A program made the position numbers and the translations under genes. The notes under the pieces are model-generated. The model made no database searches. It was not told where the DNA came from and saw only the letters and a program-made list of their open reading frames with translations. A stretch of 49,952 nt of DNA, from positions 1 through 49,952 of the forward strand of contig MHGH01000005.1 in assembly GCA_001805465.1 (NCBI GenBank), read 5' to 3'. Of this stretch, positions 2,643 through 46,041 are shown piece after piece (the first letter of the stretch is position 1; each line of letters starts with the position of its first letter). The stretch is from Omnitrophica WOR_2 bacterium RBG_13_41_10 (GTDB lineage Bacteria > Omnitrophota > Gorgyraeia > Gygaellales > Profunditerraquicolaceae).

Positions 2643-3128
2643 ATGGATGAAATATTGGAGATTTTAGAAAAAGATGCGCGGATTACCCCGGAAGAAATCG
2701 CCAAGATGCTAAAAGAACCGGCCCAAAAGATTAAAGAGACAATAAAAAAGTATGAAAAAGAAGGAGTGATATTAAAATATAAGACGGTCCTGAATAAGCA
2801 ATTATTTAAAGACGAGGATACTAGCGTCAGGGCCTTAATCGAGGTCAATATTACCCCGCAAAAAGACGTGGGTTTTGACAAAATTGCCGAACGCATCTAT
2901 TCGTTTGCGGAAGTCACCAGCTGCTATCTTATTTCAGGGACATATGATCTTTTGGTGGTAATAGAAGGCAAAAACATCCATGCGGTTTCTAATTTCGTAG
3001 CGGAAAAACTTTCTTGCCTGGAAAATGTGCGAGGTACGGTAACGCATTTTTTACTAAAAAAATACAAAGAAGACGGAGTAGTTTTAAAACATAAGGAAGA
3101 AAATAAAAGGATAGCAATATCGTACTAA
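2643..3128 (+). CDS. Lrp/AsnC family transcriptional regulator
   Basis: N-terminal HTH (ILEILEKDARITPEEIAKML) plus a C-terminal RAM/AsnC-type ligand domain. The stop abuts the start of the aminotransferase gene (TAA ATG). Confidence 0.8.
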   Translation: MDEILEILEKDARITPEEIAKMLKEPAQKIKETIKKYEKEGVILKYKTVLNKQLFKDEDTSVRALIEVNITPQKDVGFDKIAERIYSFAEVTSCYLISGTYDLLVVIEGKNIHAVSNFVAEKLSCLENVRGTVTHFLLKKYKEDGVVLKHKEENKRIAISY

Positions 3129-8180: not shown

Positions 8181-9704
8181 ATGAAAAGAATAGGTTTTGA
8201 TAATGAAAAATATTTAAAAGAACAGACTGCCGCTATTTTAGACAGGGTAAAAAAATTCAATAATAAACTGTACCTGGAGTTCGGCGGAAAGCTCTGTTTT
8301 GATTATCATGCCGCCAGGGTCCTGCCGGGGTATGACCCCAATGTAAAGATAAGATTGCTGCAGCAGTTAAAGGATAAAATAGATATAGTCCTGTGTATTT
8401 ATGCCGGCGATATTGAAAAGGGCAGGGTACGCGGAGATTTTGGCATAACTTACGACGCCGCAACCTTAAAGTTGATTGATGATTTAAGAAAATGGGGCTT
8501 GGATATAAGGGCAGTCGTGATTACGCGTTTTAATAACCAGTCAGCGGCAGTTATTTTTAAAAATAAATTAGAACGGCGTAGCGTAAAGGTATGCCTGCAT
8601 TATCCTATTGAAGGTTACCCCACAAGTATAGATTTCGCAGTAAGCGAAAAAGGTTTTGGTAAAAATGAATATATAGAAACCAAAAATCCCATTGTGGTGG
8701 TTACAGCACCCGGGCCGGGTAGCGGAAAATTAGCCGCTTGTCTTTCACAATTGTACCAAGAGCATAGACGGAGAATAAATGCCGGCTATGCTAAATTTGA
8801 GACTTTTCCTATCTGGAACCTACCCTTAAAACATCCAATAAATATTGCTTATGAAGCAGCTACTGCAGATATTCAGGATTTTAATTTAGTGGACCCATTT
8901 CATCTCAATCAATATAATAAAACAGCCATAAACTATAACCGCGACGTGGAAAGTTTTCCTATACTAAGGTTAATCTTAAATAAGATATTTGATAAGGGCT
9001 CTATCCTACCGATGTATAATTCTCCTACTGATATGGGTGTTAACCGTGCAGGTTTTGGCATTGTAGACGATAAAATAGTACAGGAAGCAGCAAGGCAGGA
9101 ATTAATCCGCCGCTATTTTAGGTATAATACCGAATATGTGTTAGGGATAGAAAGGAAAGAAACCGTAGAGAAAGTAGAACTTTTGATGGAAGAGCTGGGG
9201 GTTAAGATTTCCGATAGGATCACGGTAGAGGTAGCCAGAAAAACAGCACAAGACGCAGAAGCCAAGGGTAAAGGTAACGCCGGAATATATTGCGGAGCAG
9301 CAATTCAGCTAAATGACGACCATATGATTACAGGCAAAAATTCTAAACTGATGCATGCGGCCTCAAGCGTAGTCTTAAATGCCATCAAGACCTTAGCCAA
9401 TATTCCCGATGAGATTTTATTGCTTTCCCCTCACATTATAAATCAGATTGCCAAACTGAAAGAAGGGATCCTCAATGCAGAATCCGAGAGCCTGGATTTA
9501 GAAGAGACTCTCATTGCTCTGTCTATCAGCGCTACCACTAATCATACCGCTGAGCTTGCCATGAATAGACTTGTAGAATTAAGGTCCTGTGAAATGCATA
9601 TGACGCATATCCCCACTCCGGGAGATGAGGTAGGCCTGAAGAGATTAGGAGTGAATCTTACTACCGATGGGAAATTCTCCTCCCGCAACCTCTTTGTAAC
9701 CTAA
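8181..9704 (+). CDS. DUF1846 / UPF0371 family protein
   Basis: About 500 aa. The N-terminus GFDNEKYLKEQTAAILDRV is recalled as characteristic of the UPF0371 family. Function unknown. Confidence 0.6.
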   Translation: MKRIGFDNEKYLKEQTAAILDRVKKFNNKLYLEFGGKLCFDYHAARVLPGYDPNVKIRLLQQLKDKIDIVLCIYAGDIEKGRVRGDFGITYDAATLKLIDDLRKWGLDIRAVVITRFNNQSAAVIFKNKLERRSVKVCLHYPIEGYPTSIDFAVSEKGFGKNEYIETKNPIVVVTAPGPGSGKLAACLSQLYQEHRRRINAGYAKFETFPIWNLPLKHPINIAYEAATADIQDFNLVDPFHLNQYNKTAINYNRDVESFPILRLILNKIFDKGSILPMYNSPTDMGVNRAGFGIVDDKIVQEAARQELIRRYFRYNTEYVLGIERKETVEKVELLMEELGVKISDRITVEVARKTAQDAEAKGKGNAGIYCGAAIQLNDDHMITGKNSKLMHAASSVVLNAIKTLANIPDEILLLSPHIINQIAKLKEGILNAESESLDLEETLIALSISATTNHTAELAMNRLVELRSCEMHMTHIPTPGDEVGLKRLGVNLTTDGKFSSRNLFVT

Positions 9705-9712
9705 ATCTGTTT

Positions 9713-11107
9713 ATGTCAATAAGTATAAAATTTTTAGGCGGGACAAGGACTGTTACCGGCTCCAGCCACCTCGTTTTGACCGATAAATCGGAAGTTTTAA
9801 TAGATGCGGGGTTGTTTCAGGGGCATCGTGATGCCTTTTACGAGGTTAATACTACTTTCAATTTTAACCCTCACACCATAGATGCGCTTATTTTATCTCA
9901 TGCCCATATTGACCATTGCGGGAATATACCTACCTTGGTTAAAAGGGGCCTACGCTGTAAAATCTATACTACTTCGGCAACACGCGATTTATCAAAATTA
10001 ATGCTGATGGATTCAGGAAAAATTCAGGAAGAAGATATAAGGTATATCAATAAGATCAATAAGAAATTAGATTTGCCTTTAAGAAAACCCCTTTATACTG
10101 CAAAAGATGCAATCAAAGCTGCTAAAAGGTTTCGCGCTATTTCTTACGGCCAGAAATTCTGTGTCACCAAAGATATATTCGTTACCCTATATGATGCAGG
10201 CCATATTTTGGGGTCCGCGATTATAGTTTTGGATATAAAACAAAAAGATAATGATATACGCTTAGGATATGCCGTGGATTTAGGCAGAAAGAGCCTGCCC
10301 ATCATTAAAGATCCGGTGGCACCTAAGGAGTTAGATTATTTAATTTTAGAGACTACCTACGCAGGGAGATTCCATCCGTCCATTGAAGAGGCCAAAGGAA
10401 AACTTAAAGAGGCGATCAATCGCACGGTTGGGCGTAATGGCAAGATTCTGATACCCGCCTTTAGCTTGGAGCGTACGCAGGAGGTGCTTTATTTTTTAAA
10501 CGAGCTCTTAAAAGAAAAGGCTATTCCTACTATTGCCGTATATGTGGATAGCCCTTTGGCCTTAGACGTCACCGAAGTTTTTAAAACACACGCTTCTTAT
10601 ATGAACGCCAAGACTAACCTAGCTATCGAGGGGGGCCATAGCCCTTTTGAATTTTTAAATTTGAGGTTTGTGCGCAGCCAAGAAGAATCCAAGAGCCTTA
10701 ATAATAATAAGCGGCCGATGATTATTCTGGCAGGTTCGGGAATGTGCGAATCCGGAAGAATTTTGCATCATTTAAAAAACAATATAGAAGATTCGCGTAA
10801 TACTGTTTTGGTTGTCGGCTACATGGCCCAGGATACTCTCGGTAAACGAATCGTCGAGAAGATGCGTTATGTGCGCATCTTCGGAGTAGAATACGAATTA
10901 AATGCAGAAGTGGTAGTGATAAATGCATTCTCAGGCCATGCTGACCAGAATGACCTTTGTGATTTTATCAGCGCCTGCCTTCCTTTAAAACGCATCTTTT
11001 TAGTGCACGGAGATTTAGACCAGGCTCAAAACCTTTCAAATAGGCTGATCACGCAAAACCTCAATATATATATTCCTTCTAAGGGTGAAGAAATCTTGCT
11101 TAATTAG
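9713..11107 (+). CDS. MBL-fold metallo-hydrolase of the beta-CASP (RNA-metabolising, CPSF/RNase J-like) type
   Basis: HAHIDHCG metal-binding motif, beta-CASP-like middle region, C-terminal SGHADQND motif. 464 aa. Confidence 0.78.
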   Translation: MSISIKFLGGTRTVTGSSHLVLTDKSEVLIDAGLFQGHRDAFYEVNTTFNFNPHTIDALILSHAHIDHCGNIPTLVKRGLRCKIYTTSATRDLSKLMLMDSGKIQEEDIRYINKINKKLDLPLRKPLYTAKDAIKAAKRFRAISYGQKFCVTKDIFVTLYDAGHILGSAIIVLDIKQKDNDIRLGYAVDLGRKSLPIIKDPVAPKELDYLILETTYAGRFHPSIEEAKGKLKEAINRTVGRNGKILIPAFSLERTQEVLYFLNELLKEKAIPTIAVYVDSPLALDVTEVFKTHASYMNAKTNLAIEGGHSPFEFLNLRFVRSQEESKSLNNNKRPMIILAGSGMCESGRILHHLKNNIEDSRNTVLVVGYMAQDTLGKRIVEKMRYVRIFGVEYELNAEVVVINAFSGHADQNDLCDFISACLPLKRIFLVHGDLDQAQNLSNRLITQNLNIYIPSKGEEILLN

Positions 11108-12514: not shown

Positions 12515-12523
12515 TCTCTATAT

Positions 12524-12709
12524 TTAGCAGGTCCTGGCTTGGTTTGTTTCTCGCGGGGACGCTCTCCCCGCCCCTGCGAGGCGGAGATTCGCTCCCCTGC
12601 GGTGTCTCGCTCTCACCGACTATCTTTTAGCAGGTGAACCATGCCCGCTCGTCATCCTCGGAGGCCCCGTTCGAAATCAAACCAAGCCACCCGCTAAGAC
12701 CAGTTTTTT
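12524..12709 (+). ncRNA. Candidate structured ncRNA of unknown class (GC-rich, ~175 nt). Strand is tentative
   Basis: A perfect 12-bp closing helix (12535-12546 pairs with 12678-12689) extends outward with irregularities to 12524/12697. The interior is far more GC-rich than the flanks and holds the hairpin GCGGGGA-CGCTC-TCCCCGC (12553-12571). A T6 run lies at 12704-12709. A possible promoter is TTCGCA (12497), 16 nt, TATATT (12519). Confidence 0.35.
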
Positions 12710-12830
12710 ATTGACAGGGAATTATGCAGCAGTAAAATAATATTTATTGTAGAGGATTTATTCTAGATAATGTAGTGGCTGTATAATAGAGTGGTGCTTT
12801 GGAATATCTCATAATGGAGGAGGCGAGCAT

Positions 12831-13336: not shown

Positions 13337-13684
13337 ATGCAAGAACGCCGAAGGTTTGTCAGAATTCCGGAGAATTTGCAGATATCCTACGAAATTATGC
13401 CGAGCGTAAAAAGCGGAGCTTTTATTACCAAAAATATCAGCCAGGGCGGGATAAGATTTTTTGTCCACGATCTCATTCCTAAAAATAGTCTTTTAAAAAT
13501 AAAACTCACCATTAAAAATATACCTTTCTCTTTTGATGCCATGGTGAAACTTATCTGGATTAGAGAAGAGCCTCAGAGTGAAAGATATGAAATCGGTGTA
13601 GAATTTGTAAACCTGCCTAAAAAATCCGCAAAAACCCTTATTGCTTATATAAAAGATATCTTAGAAGTAAGTCATCGTGCATAA
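13337..13684 (+). CDS. PilZ domain protein (c-di-GMP receptor candidate)
   Basis: RRRFVRIP (RxxxR) and NISQGGIRF (D/NxSxxG) motifs at the spacing expected for PilZ. 115 aa. Confidence 0.75.
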   Translation: MQERRRFVRIPENLQISYEIMPSVKSGAFITKNISQGGIRFFVHDLIPKNSLLKIKLTIKNIPFSFDAMVKLIWIREEPQSERYEIGVEFVNLPKKSAKTLIAYIKDILEVSHRA

Positions 13685-13686
13685 GT

Positions 13687-13737
13687 TTCGACCACCCTTC
13701 CATCGACGAACGCATCGCCTTCGCAAAATCTTCGTAA
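13687..13737 (+). pseudogene. Orphan copy of the last 16 codons plus stop of the M48 peptidase gene
   Basis: It reads FDHPSIDERIAFAKSS*, against FDHPPIDERIAFAKST* at 12465-12514. The 29-nt core is identical (13702-13730 equals 12479-12507). No upstream ORF is joined to it. Confidence 0.8.
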
Positions 13738-13753
13738 TTTAATTATTTTCTGG

Positions 13754-13823
13754 GTAAATGGGGTCAGAATTATTTTTTCAGTAAATGGAGTCATAGGAAA
13801 AAAATAATTCTGACCCCATTTAC
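13754..13823. terminator. Long perfect inverted repeat (25-bp stem, 20-nt loop). Probable bidirectional terminator and a member of the GGGGTCAGAATTATTT repeat family
   Basis: 13754-13778 pairs perfectly with 13799-13823. T/A runs sit at the inner ends of the stem arms. It lies at the convergent junction between the plus-strand genes and lpxB, and the right arm overlaps the lpxB stop codon. Confidence 0.7.
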
Positions 13824-14959
13824 TTCTTGAGGAAGTTGAGGATGGTTTTGGCGGCGCGAAGAGATGCCCCTTTTTCGCCAAGCCGAGATTTGACTTGTAT
13901 AAGATTCTTTTTGATCTCTTGAAGGCGGTTAGAGTCAGCGAGAATCTTTAGGGCTTCTTCTGAGATATTGCGAGGGGTGGCTTGAAACTGGATAAATTCG
14001 GGGATAATTTTTTTACCCGCCACAATATTTACCATGCCGATATAAGGGAGCCTTACCTGTGGCCGGTAAAGCAGGTAATTTAAAAGGCTAAGTTTATAGA
14101 CTACGATAAAGGGCTTTTCTAAGATTGCAGTCTCAAGAGTGGCTGTGCCGGAGGCTACCAGGCAAAAATCAGCGGCGTTGATACAATTATAGGTTTGGCC
14201 CTCGACGATTTTTAAATCTAAATTTATTCCTTTAACTATACGCTGGTAAATACTCCATTCTACCTGCGGGGATTTAGCGATCACAAACTGCGCATTAACG
14301 ATTTTATTTTTCATTAAAAGGCACGATAACAACATTACCGGTAAAATATTTTCTATCTCTGCTTTGCGCGAACCGGGTAGAAGCGCGATTGTAGTTTTGC
14401 CTTCGGCTAACCCTGCTTTTAACAGGAACTCTTTTTTGTTTGTATCGGCTGTGATGATATCTAAAAGCGGATGCCCAGTAAATTCAACATCCACCCCGTA
14501 TTTTTTATAAAACTCCTGTTCGAATTTAAACAGCACGATCATCTTATGGATATATTTTTTAATAGTTTCAATTCTGCCAGTGCGCGATGCCCAGACTTGA
14601 GGGCCGACATAATAAATAGTAGGAATAGTTTTACGGATAGCCTTGGCTAGCCTTAAGTTAAATCCGGAAAAGTCTACCAGGATGATGGCATCCGGTTTTT
14701 CGGTGGCGATTTTCTCAAGGATAAGTTTTTTTAAGGCGAAAAAGCGGGGTAGTTTCTTTAAGACGTCAAAAAGGCCGATGACTGCTAATTCTTTTATGTC
14801 GCAGTAAATCTCTTGAGCATTTTGGCGTAACAGTGTTCCTCCGACGCCGGATATTTTTATGCGGGGGGATACTTCTTTAATGGCTTTGGCGAGTGCCCCG
14901 GCATTAAGATCGCCGGATGGCTCTCCACAAATGATCATAATCTGTTTTATTTCTGCCAT
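13820..14959 (-). CDS. lpxB: Lipid-A-disaccharide synthase
   Basis: N-terminal IICGEPSGDLNAGALA (the GE(A/P)SGD motif), GT19-like length of 379 aa, and lipid A/msbA neighbourhood. Confidence 0.9.
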   Translation of the reverse strand: MAEIKQIMIICGEPSGDLNAGALAKAIKEVSPRIKISGVGGTLLRQNAQEIYCDIKELAVIGLFDVLKKLPRFFALKKLILEKIATEKPDAIILVDFSGFNLRLAKAIRKTIPTIYYVGPQVWASRTGRIETIKKYIHKMIVLFKFEQEFYKKYGVDVEFTGHPLLDIITADTNKKEFLLKAGLAEGKTTIALLPGSRKAEIENILPVMLLSCLLMKNKIVNAQFVIAKSPQVEWSIYQRIVKGINLDLKIVEGQTYNCINAADFCLVASGTATLETAILEKPFIVVYKLSLLNYLLYRPQVRLPYIGMVNIVAGKKIIPEFIQFQATPRNISEEALKILADSNRLQEIKKNLIQVKSRLGEKGASLRAAKTILNFLKK

Positions 14960-20603: not shown

Positions 20604-20940
20604 GGGCCACTAGCTCATCTGGTAGAGCACCACCCTCTAATAAGGGGGCGCTGCCGGGTAACTGGTAGTAGAAAATCTTGTAAATTGCGGGAAAATCTGT
20701 GTATTTCAAGATACTCTAAATATAGAGTAACAATTTTTGAATGCAGATAATCCGCAGCCAAGTCCGCCGATAATTATAGCGGAAAGGTTCAACGACTATA
20801 ATCAAGACGCCCTACCGTTTTTATCCAAAAGCGTTATTCTAAAAACGGTAGGGCGATGGGATAGTCTGATCTGTATGGCGACATACAGTTAACACAAATG
20901 TTTAAGGTGGGTGTGCCGCGTTCGAGTCGCGGGTGGCTCA
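20604..20940 (+). tRNA. tRNA-Lys(UUU), interrupted (exon 1 at 20604-20636, exon 2 at 20901-20940). No encoded CCA
   Basis: The joined exons give a 73-nt cloverleaf. Acceptor GGGCCAC/GUGGCUC (one G-U pair), D arm GCUC-AUCUGGUA-GAGC, anticodon stem CCACC/GGUGG with loop CU-UUU-AA, variable loop GUGUG, T arm CCGCG-UUCGAGU-CGCGG, discriminator A. The architecture closely parallels E. coli tRNA-Lys. Confidence 0.85.
20637..20900 (+). ncRNA. Group I self-splicing intron (tRNA-type, IC3-like, no internal ORF) in the anticodon loop of tRNA-Lys
   Basis: - Conserved elements: P AUUGCGGGAAA (20684-20694), Q AAUCCGCAGC (20749-20758), R GUUCAACGACUAUA (20787-20800), S GGGAUAGUC (20858-20866).
- P1: exon CCCU pairs with GGGG (20644-20647), with U.G at the 5' splice site.
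- The terminal G at 20900 precedes exon 2.
- P8 is a 14-bp hairpin (20809-20854).
- P9 is CUGUAUG-GCGA-CAUACAG with a GNRA loop (20871-20888). Confidence 0.85.
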
Positions 20941-21041
20941 TAAATTTAGTAATCCGCGGCGGGTAAATCTTGCGTTCTCCCGCCAGGTGATTAATGGAAT
21001 AGGGCGGGATCCCGCCAGCGTATAAGATGTGCTTGGCGGGA

Positions 21042-21058
21042 GAGTCGCGGGTGGCTCA
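21042..21058 (+). repeat. Direct repeat of the 3' end of tRNA-Lys (T-loop through discriminator)
   Basis: GAGTCGCGGGTGGCTCA is identical to 20924-20940. The downstream flanks are also similar (TAAATTTAGT versus ATAAATTAGT). Confidence 0.85.
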
Positions 21059-21064
21059 ATAAAT

Positions 21065-21099
21065 TAGTTCATAGTTCATAGTTAATAGTCCATAGTTAA
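21065..21099 (+). repeat. Five tandem heptamers (consensus TAGTTCA)
   Basis: TAGTTCA TAGTTCA TAGTTAA TAGTCCA TAGTTAA, contiguous, between the tRNA-Lys region and tRNA-Leu. Confidence 0.8.
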
Positions 21100-31668: not shown

Positions 31669-33321
31669 ATGCGCTCGGATAAAATTAAGAAAGGTTTGGA
31701 ACGCGTTCCGCATCGTGCGCTTTTACATGCTACTGGGTTATCGAAAAAAGACTTAGGAAGGCCTTTTATCGGCATCGCTAGTTCTTTTACAGATTTAATT
31801 CCCGGCCATATCGGCATGCGGGATTTAGAGCGCTACATCGAACGGGGAGTCTGTTACGGTGGCGGGGTGCCATTTTTATTTGGCGTGCCGGGAATCTGCG
31901 ACGGTATTGCTATGGGCCATTTAGGAATGTGCTATCCATTGGCCTTAAGAGAAATAGTGGCAGATACTATTGAAACTGTCTGTAATGCCCATCAGTTAGA
32001 TGGGATTGTCTGTTTGACTAACTGCGATAAGATTACTCCCGGTATGCTTATGGGTATTGCGCGTTTGAATATTCCGGCGATCATTGTTACCGCTGGTCCT
32101 ATGTTATCCGGCCGTTACAATAAAAGAAAATTAGCCTTTGTGCATGATACCTACGAGGCATTAGCACGGGCAAAGAAGGGCGAAATTTCTCCAAAAGAAT
32201 TAGCTTGTTTAGAGATGGAGTCTTGTCCCGGCGCTGGTTCATGCCAGGGCCTATATACTGCCAATACTATGGCATGCCTGACAGAAACTATGGGGATGTC
32301 TTTACCGGGTTGCGGTACAGCATTAGCCGGCTCTGCCAAGAAACGCCGGATTGCCCAGGCAAGTGGCGAGCGCATTGTGGAATTGGTGAAGAAAAATATT
32401 AATCCTTTGAATATTATCAATAAACAATCTTTGGAAAATGCTATTGTGGTGGATATGGCTTTGGGTGGCTCTACTAATACGGTTTTACATTTGATGGCGA
32501 TTGCCCATGAGGCAAAGATAAAATTAGACCTCGCTACCTTTGATAGAATCAGTAAAACCACCCCGCATATTACTAATTTAGAGCCGGCAGGGCCGTATTT
32601 TATGGAGGATTTAGAGTATGCCGGCGGCATCCCTGCGGTTTTAAAGCGCCTAAAAAAGAAGTTACATAATACTAATACACTGAGCGGTAAGAAAATATTT
32701 GAGATTACTGATGGGGCTTGCATTTTTGATCAAGAGGTGATCCGGCCGTTAAATAAAGCCTATCATAAGCAGGGCGGTATTGCGGTTTTATACGGCAACC
32801 TCGCTCCTTTTGGCGCAGTGGTAAAGCAGGCGGCAGTGAGTGCTAAAATGATGAAATTTAAAGGTAAGGCAAAAGTCTTTAACCGTGAAGAAGAAGCTAT
32901 GCAGGCAATATTGGCGGGGAAAATCAAAAAAGGCGATGTGATTGTCATCCGCTACGAAGGCCCGGCAGGTGGGCCGGGTATGCGTGAAATGCTTGCACCG
33001 ACTTCTGCAATTGTGGGTATGGGCTTAGCAGATTCTGTGGCCTTGATTACCGACGGAAGATTCTCCGGAGGTACCAAGGGTCCTTGTATTGGACATATTT
33101 CGCCTGAGGCATATAGCGGTGGAGAAATTGCTATTTTAAAGAACTCTGATATAATCGAGATAGATATAGCGAAAAGAAAGATAGAGGTTAAGTTAACCAA
33201 ATCCGAAATAGAGAAAAGATATAGAGGATGGAAGCCCATCCCGCCAAAGATTAAAACCGGTTACTTAGCGCGATATTCTAAGTTGGTGAGCTCGGCGGAT
33301 AAAGGAGCGGTTCTCTTATAA
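31669..33321 (+). CDS. ilvD: Dihydroxy-acid dehydratase
   Basis: [10 protein letters not shown] and [15 protein letters not shown] Fe-S cluster motifs. 550 aa. Confidence 0.95.
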
Positions 33322-33441
33322 ATGTTACTAAATGTTACTAAAGGTTACAAGAGGTTACTAAAAGTTACAAAGGCTTAACTTTAAATTAAATGTAACTTCT
33401 GGTAACATCAAGTAACCTTCCGTAACCTAGAGTAACTTTTA
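33319..33441. repeat. Dyad-symmetric array: five GTTAC then five GTAAC motifs, each set at exact 10-bp spacing
   Basis: GTTAC at 33324, 33334, 33344, 33354 and 33364. GTAAC at 33392, 33402, 33412, 33422 and 33432. The symmetry centre is 33380. About 40 of 51 arm positions are Watson-Crick complementary. The array fills the whole ilvD-ilvB spacer. Confidence 0.9.
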
Positions 33442-33446
33442 AAAAT

Positions 33447-35111
33447 ATGACTGGTGCACAGATATTAATTGAGTGTTTAAAACGCGAAGGGGTGAAAGTG
33501 ATGTTTGGCTATCCCGGCGGACAGGTTCTGCCTATTTTTGATGCGCTTTACGATGCGGATATCAAATTCATCCTGGCGCGTCATGAGCAGGGGGCAGCCC
33601 ATGCCGCAGACGGCTATGCCCGGGCTACCGGAAAAGTGGGAGTTTGTATTGCTACTTCTGGGCCGGGTGCTACCAATTTAACTACCGGTATTGCCAACGC
33701 CTATATGGATTCTATTCCCATGGTGGCGATTACCGGTCAGGTAAAGACTTTTCTTATCGGTAATGATGCCTTTCAGGAAGCAGATGTAACCGGCGTCACC
33801 CGGCCGATTACCAAACATAATTTTTTAGTCAAAGATGTCAAGGATCTGGCGCGGATTATCCGGGAAGCTTTTTATATTGCCTCAACCGGCAGGCCCGGCC
33901 CGGTCTTAATTGATATTCCTTCGGATGTACAGATGCAGGATACAGAATTTATTTGGCCTGAAGAAGTAAAAATTCGCGGATACAATCCTACTTATTTTGG
34001 CCATCCTGGGCAAATTAAAAAAGCCGCTAAATTAATCAAGCAGGCCAAAAGGCCTATTCTTTATACCGGCGGAGGAATTATTACTTCAGGGGCAAGCCCA
34101 GAGTTAAAAGATTTAGCGGAAAGAATTCACATTCCCGTAACTAATACCCTGATGGGGTTAGGTGGATTTCCTGGAACGCATGAACTTTTCTTAGGCATGC
34201 TTGGTATGCATGGCACTGCCTATGCCAACCACGCTATTATGGGGTCAGATTTAATTATTGCAGTGGGTGCGCGTTTTGATGACCGGGTTACCGGCAGATT
34301 AGATGCCTTTGCGCCGGGTGCCAAGATTATCCATATTGATATTGATCCAGCATCGATAAGCAAAAATGTAAAAGTGGATGTACCGATAGTGGGTGATGCC
34401 AAGAATATTTTAGGACAATTATTAGAGGAGATTAAAAAAGTCCCTGATACTACGGAGTGGTTAAAAACGATAGATAGCTGGAAGAAGAAATATCCTTTAA
34501 AATACAAAGAGGAAGGCAAGATTAAACCTCAATATGTTATCGAACAGATTTATCAAGCCACTAAAGGAGAAGCCATTATCACTACTGAAGTTGGGCAAAA
34601 CCAGATGTGGGCCTGTCAGTGGTATAAATATACCTCGCCCCATACTTTTATTTCTTCGGGAGGGCTCGGTACTATGGGTTTTGGTTTTCCGGCAGCAATG
34701 GGCGCTAAGCTGGGTTGCCCGGAAAAAATTGTCTTCGATATCGCCGGTGATGGTTCGATTCAGATGAATATTCAGGAATTAGCCACCTGCGTCTGTAATA
34801 AAATAAATGTCAAGGTGGCGATATTAAACAACGAATATTTAGGGATGGTCAGGCAATGGCAGGAACTATTCTATAAGAAACGCTATTCTTACACCACATT
34901 ATACAATCCGGATTTTGTGAAATTAGCCGAAAGTTTCGGCGCAGTGGGTATCCGAGTGACCAAAAAAGAAGAGGTGCGCCCGGCCATTGACAAGGCGCTG
35001 GCAATAGATAACACAGTGTTTATTGATTTTCATATTGAACCGGAAGAAAATGTCTATCCTATGGTGCCGGCGGGGGAGGCGATAAATAAAATGTTAGGGG
35101 GCTTAGCTTAA
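33447..35111 (+). CDS. ilvB: Acetolactate synthase (acetohydroxyacid synthase) large subunit
   Basis: [14 protein letters not shown] and the ThDP motif [16 protein letters not shown]...[12 protein letters not shown]. 554 aa. Confidence 0.94.
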
Positions 35112-35604: not shown

Positions 35605-36597
35605 ATGCTAAAGATTTATTATGATCAAGACGCGGATTTAAATCTTTTAAAAGGTAAAACCATTGCCATTATCGGTTACGGCATACAGGGCCGCGGCCAG
35701 GCACTTTGCCTACGCGATTCCGGTTGTAGTGTGGTAGTTTCCGAAATGGAAGGCACCCCAAATTATGAATTAGCCAAAAAAGACGGGTTCAGTCCTGTTT
35801 CCGCTGCCGAGGCAGCCAAGGCCGGGGATATAATTCAAATCTTAACCCAGGACCATGTGCAGGCCAAAGTATATAAGGAAAGTATTAAGCCGAATTTAAA
35901 AAAAGGCAAAGCCCTTTGTTTTTCCCACGGTTTTAATATCAGGTTTAAACAGATTAAACCACCGAAGAATGTGGACGTATTTATGATTGCCCCTAAAGGC
36001 CCGGGTGCATTAGTGCGCAGAATGTATGAAGAAAGTAAGGGTGTGCCGTGTTTGGTGGCAGTATTTCAGGATGCCAGCGGCCAAGCAAAACAATTAGCCT
36101 TAGCTTATGGAAAGGCCATAGGCGGAACACGCGCCGGAATCATTGAGACTACCTTTGATGAAGAAACTGAAACTGATCTATTTGGCGAGCAGGCAGTGCT
36201 TTGCGGCGGTGTAACAGAATTAATCAAAGCCGGATTTGATACATTGGTAGAAGCAGGGTATCAGCCGGAGATTGCTTATTTTGAGGTTTTGCATGAATTA
36301 AAATTGATTACGGATCTCATTCAGGAATTCGGTATTAGCGGCATGCGTCGAAGAGTTTCTAATACTGCCTGTTACGGAGATTTAAGCCGTGGCCCGAAAA
36401 TTATTACCGAAAAGACCCGCAAGGTGATGAAAAAATTATTAAAAGATATCAAATCAGGAAAGTTTGCCCGTGAATGGATAAAGGAAAATGAAACCGGCCG
36501 GACAAATTTCGATAGTTTATTAAAAGCCGGGGATGACCACCAGATTGAAAAAGTCGGACAGCAATTACGCCAAATGATGCCGTGGATGCGCAAATAG
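35605..36597 (+). CDS. ilvC: Ketol-acid reductoisomerase
   Basis: [21 protein letters not shown] and a conserved class I KARI core. 330 aa. Confidence 0.95.
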
Positions 36598-36661
36598 GTG
36601 TTAGGTGTTGGGTTTTAGGTGTTAGTTAGAACCAAAGACCTAACACCAAAAACCAAGAACC
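36595..36661 (+). repeat. Five tandem heptamers (TAGGTGT-like) that form the 5' arm of an extended hairpin
   Basis: TAGGTGT TAGGTGT TGGGTTT TAGGTGT TAGTTAG (36595-36629). GGTGTTAG (36618-36625) pairs with CTAACACC (36640-36647), and the helix extends imperfectly to 36604/36661. Confidence 0.8.
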
Positions 36662-45140: not shown

Positions 45141-45153
45141 ATAAGGTAATAAA

Positions 45154-45202
45154 GGGGTCAGATTTATTTTCTGCCCTAATAAATAATTCCGACCCCGTTT
45201 TT
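45154..45202 (+). terminator. Hairpin-terminator repeat, copy 3 of the GGGGTCAGAATTATTT family
   Basis: GGGGTCAGATTTATTT (45154-45169) pairs with AAATAATTCCGACCCC (45181-45196), followed by GTTTTT. The same loop core CTGCCCTA occurs as in copy 2. The 16-mer CTAAACAGCGATAAAA lies at 45223-45238. Confidence 0.75.
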
Positions 45203-45890: not shown

Positions 45891-46041
45891 AATAAAAACG
45901 AGCGTGCCCTACAGGTTTTTAACGTTTAGGCTCTTGCCCACCATACGGAGGGGAACACCTAAAACAACCCATAGCGGTCTTACCGCTCAACAATAAGTAT
46001 ATTCGGTAAAGTGTATTTTGTCAAGAAATTTATTCTAAAGA

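Follow-up and report, generated by a model that had tools for sequence, protein, structure and literature searches.

Repetitive extragenic palindromic (REP) sequences and bacterial interspersed mosaic elements (BIMEs), including REPINs, are thought to be mobilised by a trans-acting protein, and their effect on mRNA stability is regarded as incidental. The parC centromere of plasmid R1 carries two sets of five 11-bp iterons, which are bound by ParR. Here, we compare these and other described systems with an inverted repeat array, termed the GTTAC decamer dyad, that fills the spacer between ilvD and ilvB on contig MHGH01000005.1 of Omnitrophica WOR_2 bacterium RBG_13_41_10, a member of the phylum Omnitrophota. 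The window that was analysed is a stretch of 49,952 nucleotides (nt) of this contig, and coordinates are those of its + strand. On balance, the array is probably one copy of a dispersed, non-coding palindromic repeat of Omnitrophota that resembles REPs and miniature inverted-repeat transposable elements (MITEs). Its design recurs in this phylum at operon junctions that have no relation to one another, and copies come and go between close relatives.

Paired arrays of short units have been catalogued in Geobacter metallireducens, where three classes of paired sites (classes 1-3) were listed as ‘putative global regulator binding sites’ (Aklujkar et al. 2009, PMC2700814). These are opposite-strand pairs of three to five tandem repeats of 7-9 nt, namely GTTGCTYN (four repeats), TCTCCGTSY (three) and MTYCTGA (five) (PMC2700814). 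They are multi-copy, have a variable distance between the members of a pair, and lie in intergenic or intercistronic positions such as proB-proA; their function is unknown, and binding of an IHF/HU-type protein was proposed by the authors without a test (PMC2700814). Intergenic heptamer repeats have also been described, among them the cyanobacterial short tandemly repeated repetitive (STRR) type, the TAACTGA repeats of Beggiatoaceae (PMC4679880), and those of Nostoc (bioRxiv 10.1101/2022.06.06.494920). Such repeats crowd just upstream of start codons and are lineage-specific, and their role is unresolved, with a link to translation having been suggested (PMC4679880; bioRxiv 10.1101/2022.06.06.494920).

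The array between ilvD and ilvB

The operon reads ilvD, ilvB, ilvN, ilvC, and leuA, as assigned by Pfam. Its first junction is made up of the following parts, where N5 stands for the five variable positions between successive cores:

31669-33321, + strand: ilvD, dihydroxy-acid dehydratase (Pfam ILVD_EDD_N and ILV_EDD_C)
33324-33368, + strand: 5' arm, in which GTTAC is the invariant core of five 10-bp units with A-rich N5 spacers (motif positions and repeat search)
33369-33391, + strand: apical region, with a degenerate sixth unit, CTTAA (33374-33378), and an A/T-rich loop (sequence and fold)
33392-33436, + strand: 3' arm, in which GTAAC is the invariant core of five 10-bp units with pyrimidine-rich N5, mirroring the 5' arm about 33380
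33437-33446, + strand: A/U-rich linker, TTTTAAAAAT, from the last core to the ilvB ATG, without a Shine-Dalgarno sequence
33447-35111, + strand: ilvB, acetolactate synthase large subunit (Pfam TPP_enzyme_N, M and C)

The GTTAC cores start at 33324, 33334, 33344, 33354, and 33364, and the GTAAC cores at 33392, 33402, 33412, 33422, and 33432. Each mirrored pair sums to 66760, which places the centre of symmetry at 33380. A first-pass annotation of this DNA had reported the same positions and symmetry, and all of them were correct on recounting. Across the window, GTTAC occurs 49 times and GTAAC 30 times, against 48.9 expected, and neither motif recurs at N5 spacing anywhere but in these two arrays. 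Tandem Repeats Finder (TRF) places an array of period 10 at 33319-33373 and the partner array at 33411-33436, while a repeat search recovers 54-nt arms (33316-33369 and 33391-33444) with 78% complementarity. The first two units of the 5' arm are identical (TAAATGTTACT), an identity that points to a probable recent duplication of one unit. The TTTA of the linker pairs with the region of the ilvD stop codon, and a AAAAATATG flank is common to the window and its nearest sampled relative, L083.

The IlvD of the window matches a protein of Omnitrophica WOR_2 bacterium RBG_13_41_10 with 100% identity, and more than 100 Omnitrophota homologues have 84-96% identity to it. The junction between ilvD and ilvB was compared in the following relatives, given with their IlvD identity:

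L083, 96%: GTTAC array
L081 and L082, 94%: TAA-A-ATG, a junction of 1 nt
L084, 92%: TAA-A-ATG, a junction of 1 nt
L326, 89%: a junction of 3 nt
L328, 89%: an unrelated dyad of CGGTAAT heptamers
L325, 87%: ilvD and ilvB overlap
L001 and L002, 83% and 81%: ilvD and ilvB abut or overlap

The more distant Omnitrophota L008 and L025 carry other heptamer dyads at this junction. Because L083 alone among the compared relatives has the array, it is a derived insertion of about 120 bp. It entered an originally ~1-nt junction between the ilvD stop and the ilvB start, in the common ancestor of the window and L083. The two arrays differ in length by 10 nt, which looks like the gain of a single unit. The first-pass annotation had proposed an ilv regulatory element, and this proposal fares poorly, since the relatives with 94% to 81% IlvD identity have the same operon and no GTTAC array, an outcome that the annotation itself had named as refuting.

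Whole genes also interrupt the ilv operon in some Omnitrophota, judging from the position between ilvB and ilvN. In L325, a GAF/HD-domain gene sits there (13390-14823), and the corresponding gap in L003 measures about 1.4 kb (8433-9906).

The same design at unrelated operon junctions

Metagenome contigs were scanned for four GTTAC cores at N5 spacing, and at least 120 loci matched. Several contigs among the matches listed share one design, in which about five GTTAC-N5 units are followed by a loop of 1-55 nt and about five GTAAC-N5 units. Dyads of this design were found at the following places:

L161: between secY and adk, 113 nt
L177: between tpiA and gap
L193: between a larB-like gene and larC
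L120: between a UPF0047 gene and fpg
L170: between a HEAT-repeat gene and an unknown gene
L119 and L187: further contigs with the dyad
L017: upstream of ilvD, in an Omnitrophota metagenome-assembled genome from GTDB

In every case with both flanks in view, two co-directional genes enclose the dyad, which takes up the whole spacer, and the operons concerned are unrelated. L161 and L193 are placed in Omnitrophota, L161 by its SecY (93% identity) and L193 by its LarC, whose best named matches, at about 50% identity, are first a PVC-group bacterium and then many Omnitrophota. At least nine independent loci carry GTTAC dyads, with predicted folds of -35 to -49 kcal/mol, and most members have about five units per arm in exact 10-bp phasing. 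The N5 spacers differ from unit to unit, and the G+C content of the contigs ranges from 0.38 to 0.56. Over 71 units from ten elements the consensus is W-A-A-A-G-GTTAC with an invariant core, although one arm of most members was selected for that core. The elements have a polarity as well, seen in the orientation of the GTTGC unit described below.

The dyads also turn over. Relatives with 93% identical SecY have a secY-adk spacer of only 12-18 nt that carries a Shine-Dalgarno sequence, whereas the L161 dyad has none. At larB-larC, L193, L329, and L330 carry identical GTTAC dyads, while in L331, with a larC of 98% nucleotide identity, their place is taken by an unrelated dyad of the CACAGAT type (-48 kcal/mol). 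The family therefore consists of hairpin-forming, non-coding elements at several unrelated intergenic loci, and these are present or absent between close relatives at ilvD-ilvB, secY-adk, and larB-larC, both of which are properties expected of REP/BIME-like repeats.

Movement of the element is supported by its occurrence at unrelated loci, by gain and loss between relatives, and by replacement between near-identical strains. Because the family sits at unrelated junctions and turns over, the array is not an ilv regulator. It is neither conserved with the operon nor restricted to branched-chain genes, and its design recurs at secY-adk, tpiA-gap, larB-larC, and UPF0047-fpg.

At the larB-larC junction, synonymous differences cluster in the first ~45 nt of larC (L329 1133-1180 against L331 334-380), with 9 of 33 nt differing compared with 2% overall. 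Such a cluster beside swapped dyads suggests a recombinational exchange of old spacer alleles.

A scan of viral contigs for the fourfold GTTAC-N5 pattern gave 120 matches with essentially no dyads of the GTTAC design, and a phage or plasmid origin finds no support there. A separate family built on GTTAC was seen in nine metagenome contigs (L098, L104, L106, L116, L122, L171, L183, L200, and L203). It has a run of T or A, four to five direct GGTTACYNNN repeats and then a CGTTAACG-like sequence, with no inverted arm.

Constraint on cores and spacers

Comparison of the window with L083 separates the two halves of the repeat unit. Fourfold-degenerate sites of ilvD are 69% identical between the two genomes. 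The GTTAC and GTAAC cores are identical at 47 of 50 positions (94%), above the fourfold sites (p = 1.8e-5), and the N5 spacers at 23 of 45 (51%), below them (p = 0.009). Two of the three core changes are A-to-G substitutions, which on the sense strand preserve pairing as G-U. In the set of ten elements, 46% of spacer positions are Watson-Crick paired in the hairpin register, compared with 41-50% when the register is shifted by 10 or 20 nt, so that the spacers lack the partner-specific complementarity of a structured RNA under selection for pairing. No compensatory changes were seen in the array beyond the two wobble-compatible core changes.

The 5-bp core is consequently under purifying constraint, whereas the intervening bases and partner-specific pairing are not. 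Because constraint falls on the phased cores only, it has the signature of a recognition site rather than of a compensated RNA helix. As far as sequence can tell, the element has the makings of a protein-site array, with an invariant core, phasing at the helical repeat and unconstrained spacers. The earlier suggestion that 10-bp phasing reflects protein binding is in keeping with the invariant cores, the free N5 and the roughly five plus five copies, but its extension to an ilv-specific operator is unsupported.

How the element may spread and be tolerated

In the dispersed-repeat reading, the phased cores are putatively recognised by a trans-acting protein, which would spread or maintain the element and may read GTTAC on each arm at every helical turn. 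In the operon transcript, the element is predicted to form a hairpin of about -40 kcal/mol that has the ilvD stop at its base and ends 6 nt short of the ilvB ATG. Ribosomes that terminate on ilvD might melt the basal helices and so free the start region of ilvB. Self-folding inserts would then be tolerated, perhaps solely, at coupled junctions, because stop and start stay close.

Several observations weigh against this reading. Searches of the collected loci for arrays flanking a gene, as in an autonomous copy, found none, and no candidate binding protein or transposase was found. Comparison of filled and empty sites revealed no recognisable target-site duplication, albeit in a small sample with ill-defined ends, and no terminal inverted repeats beyond the arrays. 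The 50-kb window holds a single GTTAC dyad, and a relaxed search for degenerate copies in the ilv regions of closer relatives, about 150 kb in all, found no further ones. Amplification in place is suggested by the element-specific flavour of the units, the recent unit duplication, and the existence of solo arrays. The N5 spacers are more alike within an element (0.48, the same within and across arms) than between elements (0.36), which also fits amplification of one unit in place. Finally, translational coupling is a step that we purely infer, and about half of the open reading frame (ORF) starts in the window have no Shine-Dalgarno sequence anyway.

Alternative explanations

The dyad could instead be an intercistronic RNA hairpin selected by the host, serving as a stabiliser of the ilvD 3' end, an RNase III site, or a gate for ilvB, with its cores kept as helices. 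We consider this unlikely. In its favour, the + strand RNA folds at -40.8 kcal/mol with 43 pairs, one of them G-U, which is far beyond shuffled sequences (z = -4.9; 0 of 200 shuffles as good). The first-pass annotation had described a hairpin running from the ilvD stop to 6 nt before the ilvB ATG, and the fold bears this out, as the stop TAA (33319-33321) is inside the basal helix and the helix ends at 33440, ahead of the ATG at 33447. This exact span from stop codon to start region favours an RNA function, and in the wider family, five of eight members have 0-6 nt between the stop and the first core, with the start 10-20 nt past the last core. The same explanation is favoured by the wobble-compatible L083 core changes, and by the innermost 5' unit, which is GTTGC in six elements and in the sense orientation of the flanking genes in all six (p = 0.03). 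It is further favoured by the retention of the element over about 31% divergence at fourfold sites, and by the secY-adk dyad, which replaced a Shine-Dalgarno spacer even though adk should be essential.

Set against this are the spacers without partner-specific complementarity, the absence of compensatory changes, and the equal stability of both strands. The sense fold is better in six of ten elements, with a mean difference of -2.6 kcal/mol, but sense and antisense are equally stable on average, and in the window the - strand RNA is the stronger (-44.2 kcal/mol). Folded as DNA, the + strand reaches -22.3 kcal/mol. In the heptamer dyads described below, the wobble-compatible strand is antisense in L325 and in three of four L008 copies, and relatives manage without any element at ilvD-ilvB. 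Rfam gave no match to the array at gathering thresholds, and at E <= 10 only spurious matches of the miRNA-precursor, long-hairpin type, far under threshold. An intrinsic terminator or attenuator was rejected, as no terminator-like site is present in the spacer and the 3' flank has no U-tract conserved across family members.

None of GGAG, GAGG, or AGGA occurs before the ilvB ATG, and the first-pass annotation had likewise seen no Shine-Dalgarno sequence there, but this is a weaker point than it first appeared, since the same crude test detects such a sequence at only 22 of the 47 ORF starts of the window. A generic intercistronic RNA effect, whether on stability, processing, or translational gating, is possible.

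The array might also be a neutral by-product of replication, arising by slippage at an AT-rich junction together with an intrastrand template switch, and needing neither factor nor function. This we regard as improbable. It would explain the identical first two units, the 10-nt difference from L083, the many unrelated motifs and periods, the greater likeness of spacers inside than between elements, and the solo arrays that lack an inverted partner (window 21065-21097 and L325 5761-5818). However, slippage copies whole units and would homogenise spacers along with cores, whereas the cores are held far above fourfold sites while the spacers decay. It also does not predict the same core, period, and ~5+5 copies at unrelated loci of divergent Omnitrophota, the orientation bias of the GTTGC unit, or the recurrence of TAGTTCA and TAGGTGT heptamers at different loci of different genomes.

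Control of ilvB and downstream ilv genes by an oligomeric regulator bound to duplex DNA at an operator array, for example by the Lrp/AsnC protein named in the first-pass annotation (2643-3128), is very improbable: the phasing puts constrained cores on one helix face and the window does hold an Lrp/AsnC-family gene by Pfam, but all compared relatives with the same operon except one lack the array, L328, L008, and L025 have unrelated dyads in its place, the design recurs at junctions that have nothing to do with ilv (secY-adk, tpiA-gap, larB-larC, fpg), and a prediction scan found no promoter-like or terminator-like site in or near the spacer.

Other repeat dyads and nearby elements

The GTTAC family belongs to a wider set of tandem-repeat dyads. 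A conservative detector, combining periodicity with alignment, found 12 such dyads in Omnitrophota loci totalling 208 kb, but only 4 in the 730 kb examined from other phyla (p = 1e-5). Omnitrophota loci are about ten times denser in them, where the comparison loci come mostly from distant phyla and were taken from an IlvD search of genome contigs. Unrelated-motif dyads fill many other intercistronic spacers, including that between ilvC and leuA in the window itself, which speaks against an ilv regulatory element and is the second outcome that the first-pass annotation had named as refuting. The heptamer arrays of the window are the following:

36595-36661, + strand: ilvC-leuA dyad, TAGGTGT-type heptamers followed by a partial complement, -27 kcal/mol, unrelated to the GTTAC dyad
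21065-21097, + strand: TAGTTCA heptamer array, 4.7 copies, upstream of tRNA-Leu (TRF)

The ilvC-leuA spacer of L082 is 3 nt long and has no heptamer dyad. Several spacers of one operon can carry dyads, as in L008, which uses one heptamer family in all four ilv spacers, and in L325. In the latter, three spacers are filled by TAGTTCA dyads, and a CTTGATA dyad and a TAGGTGT array occur in addition. A GTAATTG dyad occurs in L326. The arms of heptamer dyads differ by systematic transitions, such that one strand pairs fully through G-U or G-T; this strand is the sense strand in some dyads and the antisense strand in others.

In several heptamer dyads, the stop codon of the upstream gene (TAA or TAG) lies inside the first heptamer unit (L328 11647-11660, window 36595-36600, and L325 9913-9920). 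At a period of 7, a unit that contains a stop places a stop codon in all three reading frames.

These dyads could together form a modular system of Omnitrophota with several motif families per genome, in which each family has its own sequence-specific protein that installs, exchanges, or maintains it at stop/start junctions, and in which the dyads act as bridges, independent of Shine-Dalgarno sequences, between translation of the upstream and of the downstream gene. We hold this bolder view to be doubtful. If it is true, the 5+5 GTTAC decamer dyad would be the first defined family of the system.

A second recurrent intergenic element has ends like TAGCGGGTCCTG...CCACCCGCTA and a strong fold of between -34 and -102 kcal/mol. 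In the window it takes up a gap of 316 nt, and elsewhere it fills the ilvC-leuA spacer of L084 and L326 and the pfk-fba spacer of L325:

Window 12515-12830: TAGCGGGTCCTG...CCACCCGCTA element
L084 5260-5458: the same element
L325 8446-8586: the same element
L326 14804-14907: the same element

Hairpins of the GGGGTCAGA...TCTGACCCC type occur downstream of genes (window 13741-13819 and 45141-45200; L326 19950-19995) and look like a shared terminator or repeat motif.

Two RNA features of the window were also recorded. At 20606-20950, a tRNA gene is split by a group I intron (RF00028, 116 bits, 20627-20888). This intron-containing tRNA was not called by ARAGORN, and brute-force splicing trials left its anticodon unsettled. 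The 3' end of the tRNA, GAGTCGCGGGTGGCTCA at 20925-20941, is copied at 21041-21057, about 115 nt downstream and ahead of the TAGTTCA array and tRNA-Leu. A DUF3800-V RNA motif (RF02964, 72.9 bits) lies on the - strand at 45895-45994, between two + strand ORFs.

Significance and comparison with known systems

An ordered array in an amino-acid operon resembles a bespoke regulator, yet here it is a lineage-wide repeat, a point that matters for annotation. The class of element is barely described: the Geobacter dyads were listed without explanation, heptamer arrays are unexplained in cyanobacteria and Beggiatoaceae, and no description of such elements in Omnitrophota was found in the literature. 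The GTTAC family makes the class tractable through its invariant 5-bp core, its 10-bp phasing, its 5+5 copies, and its gain, loss, and replacement between near-identical strains. Two questions become testable in an uncultured phylum, namely what reads the repeat, and how compact operons tolerate hairpins of about 120 nt at coupled junctions.

Some known elements were set aside during the comparison. Integron attC sites were rejected on the order of their motifs, as RYYYAAC...GTTRRRY would be expected and the array reads GTT...AAC on both strands, with housekeeping operon genes at its flanks. Direct repeats of the OmpR/PhoP type and the TTAC target of IS608 mismatch in orientation, context, or architecture, and were rejected or kept as mere leads. 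REP in the strict sense was excluded by the A/T-rich decamer build, which differs from a G+C-rich palindrome with a GTAG-type head.

Like the GTTAC dyad, REP/BIME elements of Enterobacteria and Pseudomonas are short non-coding hairpins in intergenic and intercistronic spaces, co-transcribed with their operon and differing in presence between relatives. A REP, however, is a single GC-rich palindrome of 20-40 nt, whereas the GTTAC dyad has five phased 10-bp units per arm with a 5-bp core, is A/T-rich, lacks the GTAG-type head, and is accompanied by no RAYT-type gene that could be seen. MITEs share with it a length of about 100-150 bp, a non-coding and palindromic nature, insertion polymorphism, and families that span genomes. 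Unlike in MITEs, no terminal inverted repeat distinct from the arrays could be recognised in the GTTAC dyad, no target-site duplication or parent insertion sequence was evident in the small sample compared, and its unit number and loop vary.

Architecture offers other parallels. The Geobacter paired sites also consist of two convergent arrays of short units that are intergenic and present at several loci, a likeness in architecture, but they differ in phylum, motifs, and periods. The parC centromere has a comparable set of 5+5 short sites at about one helical turn, to which a small protein binds cooperatively. Its iterons are all direct and flank a plasmid promoter, while the two GTTAC sets are inverted relative to each other, lie between cistrons of the chromosome, and recur at several loci. 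The TAGGTGT and TAGTTCA arrays of the window resemble the heptamer repeats of cyanobacteria and Beggiatoaceae, whereas those repeats differ from the GTTAC dyad in being mostly direct, in having a period of 7 rather than 10, and in lacking a substructure of conserved core and free spacer.

None of the compared systems has the 5+5 decamer design with an invariant core. In behaviour, the GTTAC dyad is closest to REP/BIME elements and MITEs; in architecture, it is closest to the Geobacter paired sites; and in its arrays of short units, it is closest to the heptamer repeats.

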